Shown: positions 20,010-28,913, numbered from the stretch's first letter. The stretch is DNA of 64,000 nucleotides from an uncultured Verrucomicrobiae bacterium (GCA_963706955.1 CAVPOC010000002.1:96001-160000); one strand, 5' to 3'. Made by a program: numbers and translations. Notes: generated by a model not told the origin, from the letters alone.

Positions 20010-21095
20010 ATGGGCCTCATCAATCTCCTCCGCGGCGAACTCATCGAAATCATCGAGTGGATTGACGATTCGCGCGACACCCTGGCGTGGCGATTTCCCG
20101 ATGACGACAAAGCGATTAAGAATGGCGCGCAATTGATCGTGCGCGAGTCACAAGTCGCGCAACTCGTCATGACCGGGCAGTTTGCGGATACCTTTTGGCC
20201 CGGCAAACACACGCTTAGCACGCCCAATGTGCCGGTGCTGGCGCGAATCCAAGGTTGGAAGTACGGCTTCGTCTCTCCGTTCAAGGTGGATATTTATTTT
20301 GTCTCGACGCGGCTGTTCACAGGCAACAAGTGGGGGACTTCAAACCCGGTGATGATGCGAGATCAGGATTTTGGCGTCGTCCGCCTCCGGGCCTTCGGGA
20401 TTTTCGATTTTAAGGTGGTAAACCCTCAGCTCTTTCTTAAAGAAGTCGTCGGGACGGACCAGAATTTCCGGATCGACGAGTTCGCCGATACGATGCGCTC
20501 GCGCGTAGTCAGCGCCTTCAGCGATGCGCTCGCCACCGCTAAAATTCCGGCTCTGGATGTGGCCAGTCGCTACGGCGAACTCGGCGAGGCATTGGTGCCG
20601 GCTATCAACCCGGCGATGATCGGAAAGTACGGCCTCGAGGTGACAAGCTTTATCCTTGAGAACGTCTCCGTGCCGCCAGAAGTCGAGCAAGCAATCGACA
20701 AGCGTTCCGGCATGAGCGTGGTCGGTAACCTGAACGACTACGTGAAGTATCAAATGGGCCAGGGCATGGCTCAGGGTGGGGGCGCCGCCGGCGCGCCCGC
20801 CGAGATGGCAATGGGATTCGCCATGGCGCAACAAATGATGCGCGACGTCGGTCAACCCGCACCGACGGCGTCAACGCCGCCTCCGTTGCCTGGCGTGCCG
20901 CCTCCGCTTCCTGGAGCAGCCTCTCCCGCCGGAGGTGCGCCCGAGGTGTTTACGGCCGAGCAGGTGGCGGAGCGGCTTGGTGTGGCAGCTTCCGACGTCA
21001 TTGCAGCGGTAGAAAGTGGAGAGCTGAAGGGCCGCAAGATCGGCAGCCAGTTGCGCATTACCAAGGCCGCCCTCGACGACTTTCTCGCGCATTGA
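20010..21095 (+). CDS. SPFH (YdjI-like) domain protein with C-terminal excisionase-type HTH
   Basis: IKNGAQLIVRESQ...KWGTSNPV..RD..FG.VRLRAFG, a Pro-rich linker, then FTAEQVAERLGV...GELKGRKIGSQLRI. Confidence 0.85.
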   Translation: MGLINLLRGELIEIIEWIDDSRDTLAWRFPDDDKAIKNGAQLIVRESQVAQLVMTGQFADTFWPGKHTLSTPNVPVLARIQGWKYGFVSPFKVDIYFVSTRLFTGNKWGTSNPVMMRDQDFGVVRLRAFGIFDFKVVNPQLFLKEVVGTDQNFRIDEFADTMRSRVVSAFSDALATAKIPALDVASRYGELGEALVPAINPAMIGKYGLEVTSFILENVSVPPEVEQAIDKRSGMSVVGNLNDYVKYQMGQGMAQGGGAAGAPAEMAMGFAMAQQMMRDVGQPAPTASTPPPLPGVPPPLPGAASPAGGAPEVFTAEQVAERLGVAASDVIAAVESGELKGRKIGSQLRITKAALDDFLAH

Positions 21096-21125
21096 TCAGC
21101 TCAAGTTTCGGCTACCGGCCTGCTC

Positions 21126-22235
21126 ATGGCTGAAATCACAGCACTGCGCAAGTATCCCTGCCCCGAGTGCGGCGGGGACGCCGAATGGAGCGCTTCCAAA
21201 CAGGCCCTCGTCTGTCCCTATTGCGGCACAATCGTGCCATGGACGCCGGGAAAAGATACCCTCGGAGAAACGATCCGGGAAACCGAGCTCGCTGCGGCTT
21301 TGAGTTCGGCAGGATCCGAGACTCGGGATTGGCACTTCGACAAACGCGAAGTCAAGTGCCAGAACTGCCAGGCCATCACGGTTTTCGAAGCGTCGCGCGC
21401 CGCGCAGCGATGCGAATTCTGCGGCTCGCCATCCATTGTTCCGTTGGAGACAACGCGCGATGCAATCACACCGACAGCGGTGCTCCCGGCCAGACTTTCC
21501 GAGCCGCAGGTCCGTGATCGACTCCGCCAGTGGTATTCCTCGCGAATGTTCGCGCCAGACCGGTTCAAAAAAGCCGCGCTGACTGACACCCTGCACGGAC
21601 TCTATTTGCCTTACTGGACCTTTGACGCTCATGTGCACGCGGCTTGGACGGCGATGGCCGGCTATGTCTATTTCGAGAACGTGCAGCGCCGCGGGTCCGA
21701 TGGCCGGCTCGTGAACGTTGCCGAGCAGCGCGTCCGCTGGCAACCGGCTAGAGGTGAGGTGGAGCATTTCTTCGACGATGATCCTGTTCCCGGCACGATG
21801 GGGGTCGAACTCGCCCTTCTGCGCAAAGTGGAACCTTTCCCTACCCGTGGCGACGAACTGAAGCCCTACGAACCTACCTACCTGCGAGGATGGACTGTAG
21901 AACGTTACCAGGTCGACCTGCGGAAAGCGGCCGAACTAAATCTTGCGCAAATGGACACGGCAATGAGGGAACTCTGCGCCAAACAGGTGCCCGGCGATAC
22001 TCAGCGGGACTTGCAGGTGAAAACCCAGTATCAAGGCCGCACGTTCAAGCATGTTCTCGTGCCGGTGTGGCTCGTTACTTATACTTATGGGCCGAAGAAC
22101 TACCAAATCGTCGTCAATGGCTACACAGGGATCGTCGCCGGCGATCGTCCGATCAGCTACATAAAGGTCTTCGTCTACGTCATTTTGCCCGCGCTGATCA
22201 TCATTTTGCTGCTGCTCCTGACGCAGCAGTCGTGA
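21126..22235 (+). CDS. Double zinc-ribbon membrane protein, SPFH operon partner
   Basis: CPECGG..CPYCG and CQNC..CEFCG; GLYLPYWTFD; VNGYTG; C-terminal transmembrane helix. Confidence 0.8.
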   Translation: MAEITALRKYPCPECGGDAEWSASKQALVCPYCGTIVPWTPGKDTLGETIRETELAAALSSAGSETRDWHFDKREVKCQNCQAITVFEASRAAQRCEFCGSPSIVPLETTRDAITPTAVLPARLSEPQVRDRLRQWYSSRMFAPDRFKKAALTDTLHGLYLPYWTFDAHVHAAWTAMAGYVYFENVQRRGSDGRLVNVAEQRVRWQPARGEVEHFFDDDPVPGTMGVELALLRKVEPFPTRGDELKPYEPTYLRGWTVERYQVDLRKAAELNLAQMDTAMRELCAKQVPGDTQRDLQVKTQYQGRTFKHVLVPVWLVTYTYGPKNYQIVVNGYTGIVAGDRPISYIKVFVYVILPALIIILLLLLTQQS

Positions 22236-22443: not shown

Positions 22444-23587
22444 GTGAGCTGGAAAGGTAACGAGTCGAGATTCTCACTGAGTCGGCTTCCGCTTTTCTGG
22501 AAGCTTCACATTGCTGGATGTCTCCTGCTTTTCTTTGGGCTGTTTCCGCTGCGGCTTTTCCTCATCCCGTACGAAACAGAGCTGCTGGGCTCACTCCAAC
22601 GCCATGCCTATTACCTTATCTGGTGCGATATCACCTGCTTCCTCCTGGCGATCGGCCTGCGCTATCTTTACCGGCTCGAGTATTTTTATCGCATAAGTCG
22701 CGTCTCCCTCGGAATACACATTGTCTTCATTTCTGCCGCGCTCGCGCTCATTGACATCGGACTGACCTTTCCTGTCTTTAGCCTGGTTGAGCGGCTGCAG
22801 ACATCACGCCAGCCCGCATCTCTACATTGCATCATCCATCTGGCCGCGCTTCTGGTTCTTCACAACGTGGAGCCTGCTCTATTTTCTCCTCAGGGCCTTT
22901 CAAGATGCCCGTCGCGCTGACGCGGCGCTGAGAGGCGCTGAGAACCGTCGTCGAGAGGCCGAGCTCCTCATGCTCCGCTCGCAAATTAACCCGCATTTTC
23001 TTTTTAACGCTCTCAACACGGTCCTCAGCGAGTCCGACGGCAACCAACGGCTGACGCTGGTGGTCAGAGGACTTTCCGATTACATGCGCTATGCCTTGGC
23101 AAATCGTCAAAACCTCTTCGTGCCTCTTGGCCAGGAGGCGGAAGCACTCGCCCGGTATGCGGACGTAGAGCAAGCGAGATTCGGCGGCACTCTTTGGATC
23201 CAAATCGCCATCGACCCGAATACTCGAGAGTTGCCCGTGCCCGGAGTCTTCATGCAGCCGCTGGTTGAAAACGCCATCAAACATGGCCGCGAATCGTGTG
23301 AAGAAACTCTCCGGATCCTCGTGCAGGCCGGGTTGGAGAATCGCACCCTTCACATTAAGGTCTCGAATACCGGGGCGTGGGTTCCGCCACCGACTGCTCC
23401 TCTCGACCGGCCCTCGGGCGCCGGGCTATCCATCTTGCGACGTCAACTCGAGCTCCTTTATCCAGGACGATCCGAGTTCCGGATCGGGTCGGAGAATGGA
23501 GGCGTCGTGGCCGAGATTCTGATCGATGATCCCGTCAACGCTGCGAACGAAGCGCAAACGAGCCTCAGGGACGCACGTCAAAGATGA
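22444..23587 (+). CDS. LytS/YehU-type sensor histidine kinase, one frameshift near 22820
   Basis: Transmembrane helices in ORF 22444..22920; LRSQINPHFLFNALN and QPLVENAIKHG in ORF 22787..23587. Confidence 0.88.
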
Positions 23588-24315
23588 CTTGGCGGACCCT
23601 GATTATCGATGACGAGCCTCCCGCTCGAAAACACCTTAGGCGACTGCTGGCCGAGCATCCCCAAATTGAGGTCGTCGGCGAAGCGTCCGGAGTCGCCGAA
23701 GCCATCGAAATGTGTGAAAAGTATCAGCCAGGACTTTTGTTCCTCGATGTGCAAATGCCTCGAGCGACGGGTTTCGATCTTCTGCCTAAGCTAACGCCGG
23801 TGCCAAAGATTGTCTTTGTCACCGCGCATGAGGAATTCGCGCTCCGCGCCTTCGAGGTGAATGCGGTTGATTATCTCATGAAGCCGGTGTTCGCGGACAG
23901 ACTGGCCCTTGCTCTTAAGCGCATTCTCTCAGGCTCGGGGTTGGATCCCGCTGCCGATGACCCCTTGGAAGCCGGCGATGCCGTTTTCTTGCAGAGCGGT
24001 CGAACTCTACGCATGGTGCCACTTCGCCAGATCGTTTGCATCGTAGCCGAGGGAAATTACTCCACCGTGGTCCTCAGCGACGGTAAGGAGTTTCTCATTT
24101 ATCGAACCTTGAACCAGTGGGAAAAGCGCCTACCCAGCAGTCTGTTCGTGCGGCTTGACCGCTCGATTCTCGTTAATTTGACTCATCTTTTGGAGGTCAA
24201 GATCATCGACCGGGACGCGGGTCATTTGCATCTCACCGGCCGCAAGGAACCTCTAATGCTCGGCCGGACGGCCATCAATCGCGTGCGGCTCTCTCTGCAA
24301 GAACGGCAAAGCTGA
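23584..24315 (+). CDS. LytTR family response regulator
   Basis: IIDDEPPAR, FLDVQMP, FVTAH, DYLMKP receiver domain; AEGNYS...FVRLDRSILVN LytTR domain; ATGA overlap with the kinase. Confidence 0.93.
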   Translation: MTWRTLIIDDEPPARKHLRRLLAEHPQIEVVGEASGVAEAIEMCEKYQPGLLFLDVQMPRATGFDLLPKLTPVPKIVFVTAHEEFALRAFEVNAVDYLMKPVFADRLALALKRILSGSGLDPAADDPLEAGDAVFLQSGRTLRMVPLRQIVCIVAEGNYSTVVLSDGKEFLIYRTLNQWEKRLPSSLFVRLDRSILVNLTHLLEVKIIDRDAGHLHLTGRKEPLMLGRTAINRVRLSLQERQS

Positions 24316-24551
24316 TCTGGCGGTTGGCGCTTCGCGGCCCCTGCCAACTTCGGAGAGAACTTCGCCGGATTGGGATAAGAAAACTTCCCGCAGCTGCAAG
24401 CTCTGGCACTTAGCTGCGAATCTCATAGCGAGACAAAGCTATGAACAGACGCAGAAAGACCTTCTCAACTTTTCGCAGAGCTTCCGACCGTGGTCGGAAT
24501 TTCCCTGGGCATCGCGCTCCTCAACCCACGTTTTCTCAGACGCTGCGAGAC

Positions 24552-25352
24552 ATGTCTTTCGGAGACATTCTGCCGGGCTCAATCGAAAAACGGATTGCTG
24601 GCAACTGGATTACACCGGAGGAAGCCGCTGTGGCCATCCGAGACGGCGACGGATCGGGGATACGCATCGCCATTCTGGATTCCGGCGTCGAGATTGGGCA
24701 CCCCGATTTTCGTGGCCGGCAACTCGACGACGACCTTGTCATGGATGACGTAAATCTCGGCGAGTTCGCCGAGGGCGAAGGAGAGGACACCTATGGACAT
24801 GGCACGGCGATCGCCGGGATCATCTGGAAAGTCGCTCCAGAAGCGGGCATCACCAGCTTCCGCGTGCTCGGACCAAAGCTCGCCGGACGCACGGCCCAGG
24901 TTTGGCTCGCCGCAAATGAGGCCATCACCAGAGGTTTCGACATCATCAATTGCAGTTTCGCATGCGGCATCTCCGGTCACTTATCTCTCTACAAGGAGTG
25001 GACGGACCGGGCTCTCGTCAAAGGCGTTCACGTAGTGGCCGCCTCGCACGGCGAGGAGCCGGAATGGCCTGCACATTTCGCGAGCGTGCTGGCCGTCGAC
25101 TATGCCGAGTCAGAAATGGACGAAGGCCAGATCTCGTATTCGGAAGGTCGGATGGTGGGATTTACGGCCGCTGCCGATGGCGAGGTTCCTTGGAAGGATG
25201 GCACCCATCGTTCGATGACGGGAAGCAGTTTCGCCGCCGCTCTGATGACGGGAATCGTGGCACGGCTGCTCTCGGTTTACCCGATTCGAGACCCTCTCCT
25301 GCTCAAGGCCCTCCTCCGGAGGGTCTACGGCGGCGAGGAGAATTGGAATTGA
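24552..25352 (+). CDS. S8 family (subtilase) serine peptidase, compact, with no signal peptide or propeptide
   Basis: Catalytic triad motifs ILDSG, YGHGT and TGSSFAA. Confidence 0.85.
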   Translation: MSFGDILPGSIEKRIAGNWITPEEAAVAIRDGDGSGIRIAILDSGVEIGHPDFRGRQLDDDLVMDDVNLGEFAEGEGEDTYGHGTAIAGIIWKVAPEAGITSFRVLGPKLAGRTAQVWLAANEAITRGFDIINCSFACGISGHLSLYKEWTDRALVKGVHVVAASHGEEPEWPAHFASVLAVDYAESEMDEGQISYSEGRMVGFTAAADGEVPWKDGTHRSMTGSSFAAALMTGIVARLLSVYPIRDPLLLKALLRRVYGGEENWN

Positions 25353-25544
25353 ATGGTCGACTCGGTGGAAGCGAGCCCGAGCTGAATTGCAGCATCCTTT
25401 CCAATAACGGCAGTTATTGCAAAATAGGCACGACTGTACGGGATCGCTCCGTGTTGGGGAAAAATGCATCTCGATAATTTAAAGGTTGTCGTACGTGCGA
25501 ATGATCTACTACAAAACTAGACCCAAAAGAGCTCACTATGATCA

Positions 25545-25994
25545 ATGCTGATACAATACGCACGACTGATTCTGAAAATGGCAAGTCCCCTGCGACGGAT
25601 TCGGTTGTTGAGGAAATCAAGGGGGAGCTTGAAACCAGTAGACCAGTCTAGTTTCCCGGCCAATGAACCTGAGCAGGGTTCTGAAGCGAATGAGCCAGAT
25701 CGCGAAAGTTCCTTTACGAGGCGTGCCCTGCTGCTCAAGGTGGGCTGGGCTGTCCCGGTAATTCTCGCTGTCGGGCTGCCTTCAACGGTGTTAGCCGGTA
25801 TGACGTCTCCGTCGCGTGGCCATGACCACAAACCTAAGTGTGACTTCTGGCCCAAGAAAAACCACGGGTCCGACAAAAACCACGGGTCCGACAAGAACTA
25901 CTGGCCAGGCAAAGACCACTGGTTCGACAAGAAGCACTGGCCCGACGATAACAAGAAAAAGGACTCACATCATTACGACCGATTGTGGTGGTAA
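25545..25994 (+). CDS. Putative RiPP-like precursor with Tat-type leader and His/Trp/Lys/Asp repeat core (start uncertain; TTG 25629 possible)
   Basis: FTRRALLLKVGWAVPVILAVGLPSTVLA followed by KNHGSD-type repeats; lies immediately upstream of the PqqD, kinase and nucleotidyltransferase genes. Confidence 0.7.
   Translation: MLIQYARLILKMASPLRRIRLLRKSRGSLKPVDQSSFPANEPEQGSEANEPDRESSFTRRALLLKVGWAVPVILAVGLPSTVLAGMTSPSRGHDHKPKCDFWPKKNHGSDKNHGSDKNYWPGKDHWFDKKHWPDDNKKKDSHHYDRLWW
25839..25946 (+). repeat. Six in-frame 18-bp tandem repeats
   Basis: Units encode CDFWPK, KNHGSD, KNHGSD, KNYWPG, KDHWFD and KKHWPD. Units 2 and 3 are identical (AAAAACCACGGGTCCGAC). Confidence 0.9.
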
Positions 25995-26138
25995 TTAAGG
26001 ATGCTGCGGACGTTCATCATGCCGGAGTCGACTTTGGAGCGTGCTTCGGCTGCTTAGACAGTGTCCTTGAAGACGGTCACTGGATACTCAGTGGATTCCA
26101 GAATCGCCCAAAAGCCCTTGATACATCCTCTGGATACG

Positions 26139-26435
26139 ATGCTTGCCCGACCTAACCGGCTGGGGAGCGTCAACTGCTATGATTTAGACGACGAGGTGTT
26201 ACTCTACTCCAGCGGGAGTGAGAGGGTGTTCTCGCTCAATAGTTCCGCCAAAGCCATCTGGGAACTATGTGATGGCAGTCACACCATCGTCGAAATTGGT
26301 CAGGAACTCGGCGAGCGCGTCGGCTGCTCTGGCGATGAGCTGTTTGATGACATCATAAACGCTGTAGGTGAATTCCGTGAGCACGGTCTTCTGGAGTTGG
26401 CGGAAGCGTCTCGTGCGGAAATCCCTGGAAAATAG
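26139..26435 (+). CDS. PqqD family RiPP recognition element (stand-alone)
   Basis: LDDEVLLY...VFSLNSSAKAIWELCDGSHTIVEI...DI...EFREHGLL is the PqqD winged-helix signature. Confidence 0.9.
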   Translation: MLARPNRLGSVNCYDLDDEVLLYSSGSERVFSLNSSAKAIWELCDGSHTIVEIGQELGERVGCSGDELFDDIINAVGEFREHGLLELAEASRAEIPGK

Positions 26436-26451
26436 CGAAGAAACGGTCGCT

Positions 26452-27390
26452 ATGAACGGGCAGACATTACACGTTGGGTTCGGCGGCAGCAAGGTAGCTG
26501 TCTACTCTGATGCCCCCGAGGTGCTTGCGGGATTGAAACGTATCTTTGGTGAGATGCTCGAGTCCGAGCCCACGAGGACGGTGGAGCGTTTGGAGGTGAA
26601 GCGGAGAGACGGCAATTACAATGTCTTGGGGATTACGGAAGCTTGCATCGAGTATGGTTCGCTGGCCGATACAGTGGAACGCCTGCGGTTTGAAGTGGTC
26701 TTGCGCCTGATCCAGGCACGCTCCGACCTCATGTGGCTCCACGCGGGGGCTGCGGCCTACCGGTCTGGTTCTGTCATGATTCTGGGCCCTTGGGGGCGGG
26801 GCAAGAGTACCCTCGTCACAAGCCTCTACGCAAACGGCTGGACCTACCTGTCCGACGACGTCGTCCCCCTGGACCCGAATTCTGGTAGAGCATTTCCCTT
26901 TCCTTTGACTCCAATGGTTCGCGAGGACCCAGGACAGGAATTGCCTTTCGAGCGTCTTTCAGAACTGCGAAAGACGGTGGTGCCCCTCCTACCGGAAAGA
27001 ATATGCCGAGATCCCGTCCCAATTAGGACGGTGGTATTTCCAGTTTACCGCCGTGGGTGTCACACCGAACTTCTGCCCTGCTCCCCCGCGACTGCCGCGC
27101 TGGAGCTACTTCAAAATTGTCTAAATTTCCCGAGTCACCGGGAGGCCGCGGTGCGATACGTTTGCGATCTGGTAAGGAAAGTGCCCGCTTTCCGCCTCTC
27201 TTACAGCGACGGCAGACTCGCCGCCGAGCTCATAGCTGAAGCGCATGAAAGCTGGGAGCAGGTAAAAAGCTTCCCACAGCATCCTGACGCAGCCGACGCG
27301 GTCCTCCTCACTTTCCGATCGGGCGCCGATCATCCCCAAGCAACAAAGGCTCGGAGGACACCTTCGGCGTTCATTTCGATGAGGGTCTAA
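26452..27390 (+). CDS. HPr kinase-related P-loop kinase
   Basis: LHAGAA, GPWGRGKST Walker A and YLSDD. Confidence 0.85.
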   Translation: MNGQTLHVGFGGSKVAVYSDAPEVLAGLKRIFGEMLESEPTRTVERLEVKRRDGNYNVLGITEACIEYGSLADTVERLRFEVVLRLIQARSDLMWLHAGAAAYRSGSVMILGPWGRGKSTLVTSLYANGWTYLSDDVVPLDPNSGRAFPFPLTPMVREDPGQELPFERLSELRKTVVPLLPERICRDPVPIRTVVFPVYRRGCHTELLPCSPATAALELLQNCLNFPSHREAAVRYVCDLVRKVPAFRLSYSDGRLAAELIAEAHESWEQVKSFPQHPDAADAVLLTFRSGADHPQATKARRTPSAFISMRV

Positions 27391-27537
27391 GCGCTCGCTA
27401 GTCGGCCTTGCCCGGAGGTAGCTACCGGAAGAAATCCGGAGCGCTTCGAACTGGCAACGCTCTACATGGTGCAGACGCTTGCAAAAAGTTAATTAAACAA
27501 GCGTCGGCTTTTATTACGCGTTCTCAGTTAGGAGCAT

Positions 27538-28641
27538 ATGTTCAAGACCTCCAGTAACGGCGGCGCGGGGCAATTTTGCGCTGAGATCGAGCTGCTCCTG
27601 TGCTGCGCTAGAACGTGCGTGGATTCGAAAGCGGCCGCGCGCGTCGAAGTCCTGCTGAGACAAGGCGTCGACGTGGCCTACCTAATGCGGGTAGCGCGAC
27701 GCCATGGGCTGTTGCCTTTGGTTTACTGGAACCTGCATAAAGACTGCCGAGTTCCCAAAGCTGTTCTCGATCAGTTACGGGGTTATTTCAGGACTAATGC
27801 TGTCCGCAACATAATCCTAGCTGAAGAGCTGATCGAAATTTTGAAGTTACTCAAGACACAAAATATTCTCGCGGTTCCATTCAAAGGCCCGCTTTTGGCC
27901 GCCCTGGCTTATCGAAACCTTGCCCTCAGGGAATTCTTCGATCTGGATCTTTGGGTTCACCAACGTGATTTCGCGGCGGCCCAGACCGTGCTCGAGTCGC
28001 GTGGATACCGACTGGAGGTCCAAGCTCCGTGGGAATCTTGCTTTGTCCGCAACGATGGCAAAATGGCGATGGAGGTGGATCTTCACAGCGGCATTACGCC
28101 GCCGGATTTTCCTCTCGCGCTCGACTTTGACCAATTGTGCGAGCGACTTCGTCACGTCAAACTTTCGACACGGATAGTCCCTACTTTTTCGCCGGAGGAC
28201 CTCCTCATAATCCTGTGCATTCAAGTGGCTAAGGATGCATGGGAGTGTCGTAATCGGCTACTGCAGCTCTGTGATATTAGAGCAGTGATCGACAGTCAAC
28301 AAACAATCGATTGGCGAAAACTGATGAGACAGGCTCGAACCATGGGCTGCCAGCGCATGGTCCTTCTCGGCTTCCGCTTGGTTAATGAGCTTCTGGAAGC
28401 ATCCGTGCCTATGGAAATCCTCCAGGAAGCCGCGGCACATCGGGGGGTCGAAACCCTTTGTCAGCGAGTGCGTGCGGTGCTTTTTGGAGCCGCGACTGCT
28501 GGCTTTCCCAGCAGTTTTGTTTTGCGACATCACGCAATCGATCGTGCGCGTGATCGGGTCCGTCACGCTTTGTGGTACTTTTACTTCAGGAAGGACCGCG
28601 CACTTATGGCGTCGCCACGATCTCTTTCTGGCCATGGATAA
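27538..28641 (+). CDS. Nucleotidyltransferase family protein (NTP_transf_5-like)
   Basis: [12 protein letters not shown]...[16 protein letters not shown] and RLLQLCDI motifs. Confidence 0.88.
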
Positions 28642-28913
28642 GGTAGCTGTGCAGATGTTCGCCGCTCCAATCGAACGCACTCCGAAGAACATCGTGAGTT
28701 TGGCGATACTGGTGTCGCTTGCCACGAGGAAACGTCGCCGAGGGGAACGCAAATACGTCGAACACCTTGGACTTGCTGCTGCCGTTTGGTCCAAGCAAGA
28801 CTGTCATTGGGCGCGTAGGCGCTACGCGCCCAGCGCTCTGGGCGTGTCCTCACGGAGCTTTCCGGCGCTGGGGACACCTAGGTGCGCCTGGCGGGGACTG
28901 CGGCCGCCGCGCG

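Follow-up and report, generated by a model that had tools for sequence, protein, structure and literature searches.

Kinases related to HPr kinase (HprK) that act on peptides have been described in several settings. In the paeninodin and pseudomycoidin systems (PadeK; PsmK and PsmN), an HprK-type kinase with an essential Asp-Asp pair acts on precursors with WxxP leaders, the acceptor being the Ser at the C-terminus and a cyclase being required, and an essential DxD of PsmN (D134 and D136) is needed for hexose to appear on the phosphate, with sugar transfer by PsmN itself left open (PMC6993621, PMC8498205). The Bsf lasso cluster of Bradymonas encodes a B2 protease, a cyclase and an ABC transporter beside BsfN and the kinase BsfK, which phosphorylates Ser3 of the precursor BsfA with the help of a RiPP recognition element (RRE; RiPP, a peptide made by ribosomes and modified after translation), and its product is a lasso (PMC10368454). 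The LPP system of Paenibacillus alginolyticus (lppA-K-B-S-D-N), described in 2026 from Bacillota, makes linear phosphopeptides from precursors of 35-200 amino acids (aa) with a free-standing RRE, a kinase like HprK and an NTP transferase and without a cyclase (PMC13381572). Finally, the HPr-rel-A system (TIGR04352, TIGR04353) consists of kinase and PqqD neighborhoods to which no substrate has been assigned. Here we analyze a 64,000-nucleotide stretch of DNA from an uncultured Verrucomicrobiae bacterium (GCA_963706955.1 CAVPOC010000002.1:96001-160000, hereafter the window), which holds a four-gene cassette encoding a small precursor, a PqqD/RRE protein, an HprK-like kinase and a nucleotidyltransferase. 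We read this soil bacterium cassette as an LPP-like ribosomal peptide system with a dual leader, one that would guide modification and also direct export by twin-arginine translocation (Tat), and we give this reading a probability of about 0.55.

The four co-oriented plus-strand genes proposed by the initial annotation are borne out by their open reading frames (ORFs) and by matches to PF05402, TIGR04352 and PF14907, and the catalytic motifs are intact. The stand-alone PqqD/RRE protein (26061..26435, + strand) matches PF05402 with E 5e-12 and finds only PqqD relatives in a PDB sequence search (E 0.012), a search in which the LppB structures did not turn up; an Asn and an Asp conserved in its family have a spacing of 37 residues, the same as N33 and D70 in LppB when positions are compared without alignment to LppB. 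The kinase (26368..27390, + strand, with a likely start at ATG 26452) has its H-A-G, Walker A and LSDD motifs all intact (His95, GPWGRGKST, Asp135-Asp136), and a PDB search with its family profile leads to HPr kinases (best E 3e-4). Its best NCBIfam match is TIGR04352 (HprK_rel_A) at 75.2 bits, and the PqqD protein scores 28.4 bits against TIGR04353; because both scores are under the cut-off (200 and 35 bits), the pair is by sequence a sister subfamily of HPr-rel-A. The NTP_transf_5 protein (27538..28641, + strand; PF14907, E 3e-63) resembles PsmN and LppN, and its K116, D135 and D137 are invariant across 48 homologs, the two aspartates corresponding to D134 and D136 of PsmN. A sequence search found no PDB relative for it, and its AlphaFold model (confidence score, pLDDT, 91) matches nucleotidyltransferases of the pol-beta-type fold, MenT1, LnuA, ANT(2'') and FKRP among them. 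The spacer between the kinase and nucleotidyltransferase genes (27419-27495) has four small deletions (10 bases) common to contigs from three runs. Contigs of the RNA run X15 cover the precursor and parts of the other cassette genes (17/30 bins), although contigs cannot show transcription, and a promoter and terminator scan gave nothing notable (0 promoters; 7 terminator-like elements, against 4.1 +/- 2.1 in shuffles).

The precursor gene itself needed correction. The initial annotation was right that a small precursor ORF is real, but the 149-aa ORF it drew from 25545 has the wrong N-terminus; the true start is the ATG at 25538, and the gene (25538..25994, + strand, ~151 aa) is put out of frame here by a surplus base in the G-run 25621-25625; this shift had been missed, as had the Tat-signal and AxA character of the leader. 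In the related locus L090, whose DNA is 93% identical, a single frame runs from the equivalent ATG with one base fewer near the G-run, and one base fewer is likewise seen in contigs of runs X1, X5 and X15 (run X6 has no cover there), the X1 contig being at least 99% identical over the whole stretch; the extra base is probably a homopolymer error of the assembly rather than a true strain mutation. The leader motif and the core lie downstream of the frameshift and so are unaffected. The conserved leader (25716..25796, + strand) comprises T-RR (25719), W-x-x-P-V-I (Trp at 25746), an uncharged stretch and a predicted V-L-A cleavage site ending at 25796, and it is followed by a predicted core of 65 aa (25797..25991, + strand) that starts G-M-T-S-P-S, with the Ser4 codon at 25806, and contains 12 Lys, 10 Asp, 8 His and 6 Trp.

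Starting from a 79-sequence kinase alignment, we collected 79 genome and 52 metagenome loci and took 73 of them, from more than 10 phyla, as close (L011-L063 and L090-L109); several are near-duplicates, so not all are independent. Pfam was run on 125 of the ~350 representative neighboring proteins, the remainder being covered by custom profiles alone. By a motif search, a small ORF next to the kinase is conserved in the related loci, and the upstream RR...WxxP ORF that the initial annotation expected in homologous neighborhoods is present in 48 of the 73, a count that is partly circular in that the leader profile was made from 46 leaders of these same loci; most of the misses are contig ends. 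Of the 27 loci flanked by 5 kb or more on either side, 25 have the leader, all 27 the PqqD protein and 19 the nucleotidyltransferase. The profile has no match in 58 loci with more distant kinases or in 10 lasso-type loci, and a single match in the bacterium's own genome (G000); across 300 genomes of the phylum it adds only one weak match, which sits N-terminally in a long protein and by eye is a TonB-dependent receptor signal peptide. Where the kinase locus lacked a leader ORF, 9 such ORFs were found elsewhere in 4/5 genomes tested, and altogether the profile finds 519 or more clusters of precursors at 50% identity. In Rhodothermales genomes (L166-L175), as many as three precursors stand on their own at a distance from the kinase, and their cores are helical with two Cys.

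The absence of a lasso cyclase and a B2 protease noted in the initial annotation holds for the surroundings of the locus and, for B2, as far as the 92.5% complete genome goes: a whole-genome search gave no B2 match above cut-off, the four Asn-synthase matches all lie on other contigs than the cassette, and neither a second PF14907 gene nor any PqqD gene was found apart from one that sits among pqq genes (neighbors named by eye). A B2-like match in locus L001 was set aside: it scores under the cut-off, belongs to a transglutaminase-like gene and has no visible cassette genes around it. Because the cyclase profile matches in none of the 73 close loci and the B2 profile in two, a pattern backed by 50 whole host genomes, the sequence data support a self-contained, cyclase-free peptide-modification system as opposed to a lasso remnant; in those 50 genomes B2 lies near the kinase in 2 and is absent altogether in 23, and the nearest Asn-synthase gene among the matches listed is 14 kb from the kinase. 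Neither genomic outcome that the initial annotation named as counting against its idea, a lack of similar upstream peptides in homologous clusters or a lasso cyclase or B2 in all of them, was obtained. That the cassette is a truncated or decaying lasso cluster might be suspected from its three enzyme families, which are those of the paeninodin, Psm and Bsf clusters, and from signs of damage (the precursor frameshift, nucleotidyltransferase genes broken in L011, L027 and L051, and debris at the right edge of the cassette). Against this stand the missing cyclase, cores of which just 13/143 fit even a loose lasso pattern, an extra base that is absent from near-identical contigs, and a rough kinase tree (sample chosen by similarity, midpoint root) in which the leader-linked kinases are apart, with support 0.90, from 10/11 kinases beside cyclase-family genes; we consider decay very improbable. 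The distant kinase loci L064-L089 and L121-L137, many from Pyrinomonadaceae and Nitrospirota, carry the nucleotidyltransferase and B2 with no cyclase match and no RR leader, and are another cyclase-free type.

Seen against the described systems, the cassette has the discrete RRE and the [Y/W]xxPx[L/V/I] leader of lasso clusters without their cyclase and B2 protease, and it has the RRE, HprK kinase and NTP transferase of LPP without a cyclase, so that the candidate new system of the initial annotation has a precedent in the Bacillota phosphopeptides and is not a wholly new type (PMC13381572). Further features shared with LPP are a [Y/W]xxP motif placed ~16-17 residues ahead of the cut, cores that vary, a Ser close to where the core begins, a patchy distribution and cleavage by an enzyme of the signal-peptidase-I type, the last being predicted for the cassette (PMC13381572). 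LPP differs in having a SipW-like enzyme (LppS) and an MsbA-like exporter of its own, in the leader consensus YxxPxVLxHQxIxFETxxS, with which the cassette agrees in no more than xxPxVL and the spacing while having WxxP with RR and AxA, and in its restriction, as described, to Bacillota, whereas the cassette hosts belong to more than 10 other phyla and often have Tyr in place of Ser (PMC13381572). No SipW-type peptidase was found on the kinase contig in any of the 50 host genomes or anywhere in G000, and a single-sequence query for an MsbA-like exporter found no linked one in the 73 loci and the window: its matches were limited to ABC ATPases that stand alone, five in number and 247-361 aa long, of which one lies in the window at a distance of 7 kb from the cassette. 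The consulted passages of the daptide preprint (10.1101/2023.03.08.531785) do not cover this cassette family. By its sequence the cassette would thus work like LPP and like the tailoring arm of Bsf and Psm while belonging to neither the LPP nor the lasso systems.

The site of modification can be approached through the leader register. The leader follows the pattern (S/T)RRxLLxxGWxxP(V)...AxA, with the consensus WxxPVVLAVxLPxxAxA. Of 56 precursors, 2 were set aside and 13 merged with others; in the remaining 41, which are non-redundant, the predicted cut falls 17 residues past the Trp in 20/41 and 16-19 residues past it in 35/41. Within the first four core residues Ser occurs in 27/41 (13.6 on average in shuffles), and Ser or Tyr in 36/41 (15.6); the cut rule favors Ala near +17, and a test that fixes the Trp and does without the cut rule gives 30/41 and 37/41 (shuffles 16.8 and 19.1). 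A wider set of 149 library matches, from which one 5367-aa protein was dropped and 147 were parsed, has the cut 17 residues from the Trp in 103/145 and Ser or Tyr at +1 to +4 in 126/143 (shuffle 49.4), a count inflated by a search profile that includes the first core residues; position +2 is Ser in 50/143 and Tyr in 33/143. The register here is Trp-17, Pro-14 and Ile-12, next to Y-17, P-14, L-12 and Ser3 in BsfA (PMC10368454) and Y-16, P-13 and Ser3 in LppA (PMC13381572). Because this register matches those of BsfA and LppA and the core starts G-M-T-S, the phospho-acceptor here is likely, by analogy, Ser4 of the TSPS motif. Of the sites put forward earlier, the Ser of TSPS is therefore kept as the predicted one, but GSD, DSHH and His are not favored, the likely acceptor being a Ser or Tyr just after the leader; neither of two close relatives, L090 and P0122, has the two GSD repeats, and these were rejected for that reason. 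A C-terminal Ser was also considered and rejected, as only 4/143 cores end in one.

The same leader has the makings of a Tat signal. Tat signals carry the consensus S/T-R-R-x-F-L-K, and chaperones of the TorD/DmsD type bind them and hold them until maturation is complete. The leader fits this consensus with Leu replacing Phe: the precursors have RR ~8 residues before the Trp (38/41 and 137/147, the other 10 of 147 being KR), preceded by S/T in 128/147, and Ala stands at -1 in 144/145 predicted sites, as part of AxA in 97, with Gln, Gly, Ala or Ser following the cut. A TatFind-like motif is present in 36/41 leaders and an uncharged stretch of at least 13 residues in 37/41, so that twin-arginine motif, uncharged stretch and AxA are all found. 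TatC and one signal peptidase I are encoded in the genome, and TatC is present in 49/50 homolog genomes. Shared with such signals are the pattern S/T-R-R-x-hydrophobic-hydrophobic-K/R, the uncharged stretch and AxA, and the resemblance extends to a putative cytoplasmic signal holder, the RRE, in the place of the chaperone; departures from ordinary Tat signals are the Leu for Phe, the invariant WxxP in the hydrophobic region, the tiny unfolded passenger and the use of an RRE as chaperone. B2 occurs in just two loci, and the leader is altered in both: RR is gone in L021, where there is a fusion to NHLP, and AxA in L040, two cases only; in L021 (8568-9470) the precursor has two NHLP domains, keeps AGWxxPVV and adjoins the B2 protease. 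The terms twin-arginine, Tat and signal peptide are absent from the main text of the LPP paper (PMC13381572). A literature search, which covered few subscription papers and, of PMC13381572, the main text, found nothing on twin-arginine RRE leaders or on HxD radical-SAM peptides.

These features suggest the following course of events. If Bsf, Lpp and Psm are a guide, the RRE would bind the WxxPV part of the leader and present the precursor to the kinase, which would (poly)phosphorylate Ser at core +2 to +4, that is Ser4 here and, in a large subgroup, Tyr2. The phosphate would then be capped by the NTP_transf_5 protein, most likely with a hexose or another nucleotide-activated group. Doubling as a twin-arginine signal, the leader would let the modified peptide leave by Tat, taking the place of an ABC exporter, and housekeeping signal peptidase I would cut at AxA in place of a dedicated protease, to give a linear phospho(glyco)peptide that is secreted or periplasmic. 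A leader that is a Tat signal with a signal-peptidase site would explain the lack of a protease and an exporter in the cassette itself. The RRE-guided phosphorylation and capping, which draw on the described relatives, seem to us quite probable; export by Tat we put at somewhat better than even.

A number of points weigh against this reading. Apart from the partial circularity of the leader count, the near-duplicate loci, the inflated Ser/Tyr count, the cut rule's preference for Ala and the frameshifted precursor in this assembly, the nucleotidyltransferase is missing from 8/27 well-flanked loci, and deletion of LppN changed nothing in its host (PMC13381572). Tyr at +2 in 33 cores, together with two full cores that lack Ser, sits badly with the rejection of S3Y and S3T by LppK (PMC13381572). 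TatC is common anyway; of the curated Tat models, TIGR01409 matches 2/39 leaders (E 0.025) and PF10518 1/39 (E 0.19), and the window leader matches neither. The RR lies ~61 residues from the start here, with a median of 31 and a distance beyond 50 in 18/147, and near position 150 in cyanobacterial KilA-N fusions. With Tat at its native level, natively unfolded FG repeats were hardly exported (PMC9436932). Long N-terminal extensions are found in the cyanobacterial precursors of L016, L020, L026, L063, P0203, P0227 and P0240, and a KilA-N domain is present in three library proteins.

Much of this would be accommodated if the chemistry were the same and Tat had no part in it, RR...WxxPV...AxA being an extended recognition site for RRE and kinase and the peptide staying cytoplasmic, being anchored in the membrane by its uncut hydrophobic stretch, or being cut and exported by unlinked enzymes. 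When bound by an RRE, leaders form beta-strands in which hydrophobic residues alternate, and this alone could explain part of the stretch. The long or domain-fused N-regions, the weak Tat-model scores and the poor performance of flexible cores as Tat substrates (PMC9436932) point the same way. Such a recognition site would leave unexplained the strict S/T-RR with KR as sole variant, the uncharged stretch and the fixed small-x-Ala site, which are absent from lasso and LPP motifs, and the coincidence of RR or AxA loss with B2 gain in the two loci above; we regard it as unlikely, if by no means negligible, and retain the dual leader as the preferred reading.

The cores and the enzymes that accompany them bear on what the small ORF is. 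In 13 loci there is a partner protein without a Pfam match, and a radical SAM/SPASM enzyme is adjacent to it wherever the contig reaches (11/13: L012, L016, L035, L036, L043, L055, L057, L059, L061, L062 and L092; the partner alone stands at contig ends in L015 and L107). At least two HxD units occur in 10/13 called cores of these loci against 1/42 other cores, with up to 57 in L062; the partner is fused to a methyltransferase in L016, and no NCBIfam equivalog matches the radical SAM/SPASM enzyme above cut-off. Four loci with a 2-oxoglutarate (2OG) oxygenase and N-acetylglucosamine (GlcNAc)- or HPAT-type transferases have Pro-Thr cores with 39, 49, 43 and 17% Pro. Genes for 2OG-Fe(II) oxygenase, PF11397 GlcNAc-transferase or HPAT-like proteins and Pro-Thr repeat cores are seen in L044, L047, L050, L105, L052 and L054, with PF11397 fused to the nucleotidyltransferase in L054, and the Pro-Thr loci resemble eukaryotic hydroxyproline glycosylation. 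Core type thus pairs with optional enzymes, which argues, with the caution that kin loci are not independent, that the small ORF is the substrate. No such extras were seen with the window cassette, the rest of the window not having been scanned for radical SAM or YcaO.

The same cores, which range from 12 to >300 aa and are low-complexity, mucin-, extensin- or His/Asp-rich, would also suit an exported structural or metal-binding mini-protein, with the enzymes forming a glycan or envelope tailoring set that acts on it as on a glycoprotein, or on another substrate, in place of a RiPP pathway with a small-molecule-like product. The fold of the nucleotidyltransferase near FKRP and antibiotic nucleotidyltransferases, and the position of LPP and paeninodin clusters in capsule loci (PMC13381572), fit that picture; the dedicated RRE in 27/27 well-flanked loci and the lasso/LPP leader register speak against it, and we think it improbable, the distinction being partly one of naming.

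The kinase was found in 2/41 related genomes, G000 included. The cassette is followed by a convergent 993-aa ORF, which we take to be secA, and preceded by a subtilase gene (PF00082; 24441..25352, + strand); in four cassette-free relatives (G001, G004, G008 and G010) the subtilase and secA matches are 84-240 bp apart, against 3.6 kb here. On the strength of that short gap the cassette is an insertion between the two, with debris at its right edge (28604..28807, - strand; weak AAA_21 Walker-A and pRiA4b ORF-3 fragments under cut-offs, not a functional part), and neither flanking gene is a member. A convergent ORF does lie where the initial annotation recorded secA, but it marks the insertion site and is not part of the system. 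We also rejected the subtilase as leader protease: it flanks the empty site in those four relatives and occurs, among the 73 loci, only in L090 of the same lineage; its best NCBIfam match, QhpE, is under cut-off. Further upstream, a LytS/LytTR-type two-component pair precedes the small subtilase (22444-25352), an arrangement kept beside secA in relatives, and an SPFH/Band-7 protein with a C-terminal HTH_17 domain adjoins a zinc-ribbon protein (20010-22235).

If the dual-leader reading is true, linear phosphopeptide RiPPs extend from Bacillota to more than 10 other phyla, with a design that we did not find in print, in which leader removal and export are handed to Tat and signal peptidase by way of a dual-purpose leader. 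It would bear on the substrate of the orphan HprK-like and PqqD neighborhoods and on the reaction of PF14907 enzymes, and the four-gene set, with one predicted site, is small enough to be expressed whole. More tentatively, and at somewhat less than even odds in our judgment, the family may be a widespread RiPP platform in which the RRE, much as a Tat proofreading chaperone does, keeps the Tat signal masked as long as phosphorylation and capping of the core are incomplete, housekeeping Tat and signal peptidase then complete the work, and plug-in enzymes diversify the cores: HxD-repeat cores would be served by a radical SAM enzyme and its partner, extensin-like Pro-Thr cores by a 2OG oxygenase and a GlcNAc/HPAT-type transferase, and a QY/EY subgroup by phosphorylation of tyrosine of the HprK type. 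The matching of optional enzymes to cores points to bacterial peptides undergoing new chemistry, both radical-SAM and prolyl-hydroxylation/glycosylation.

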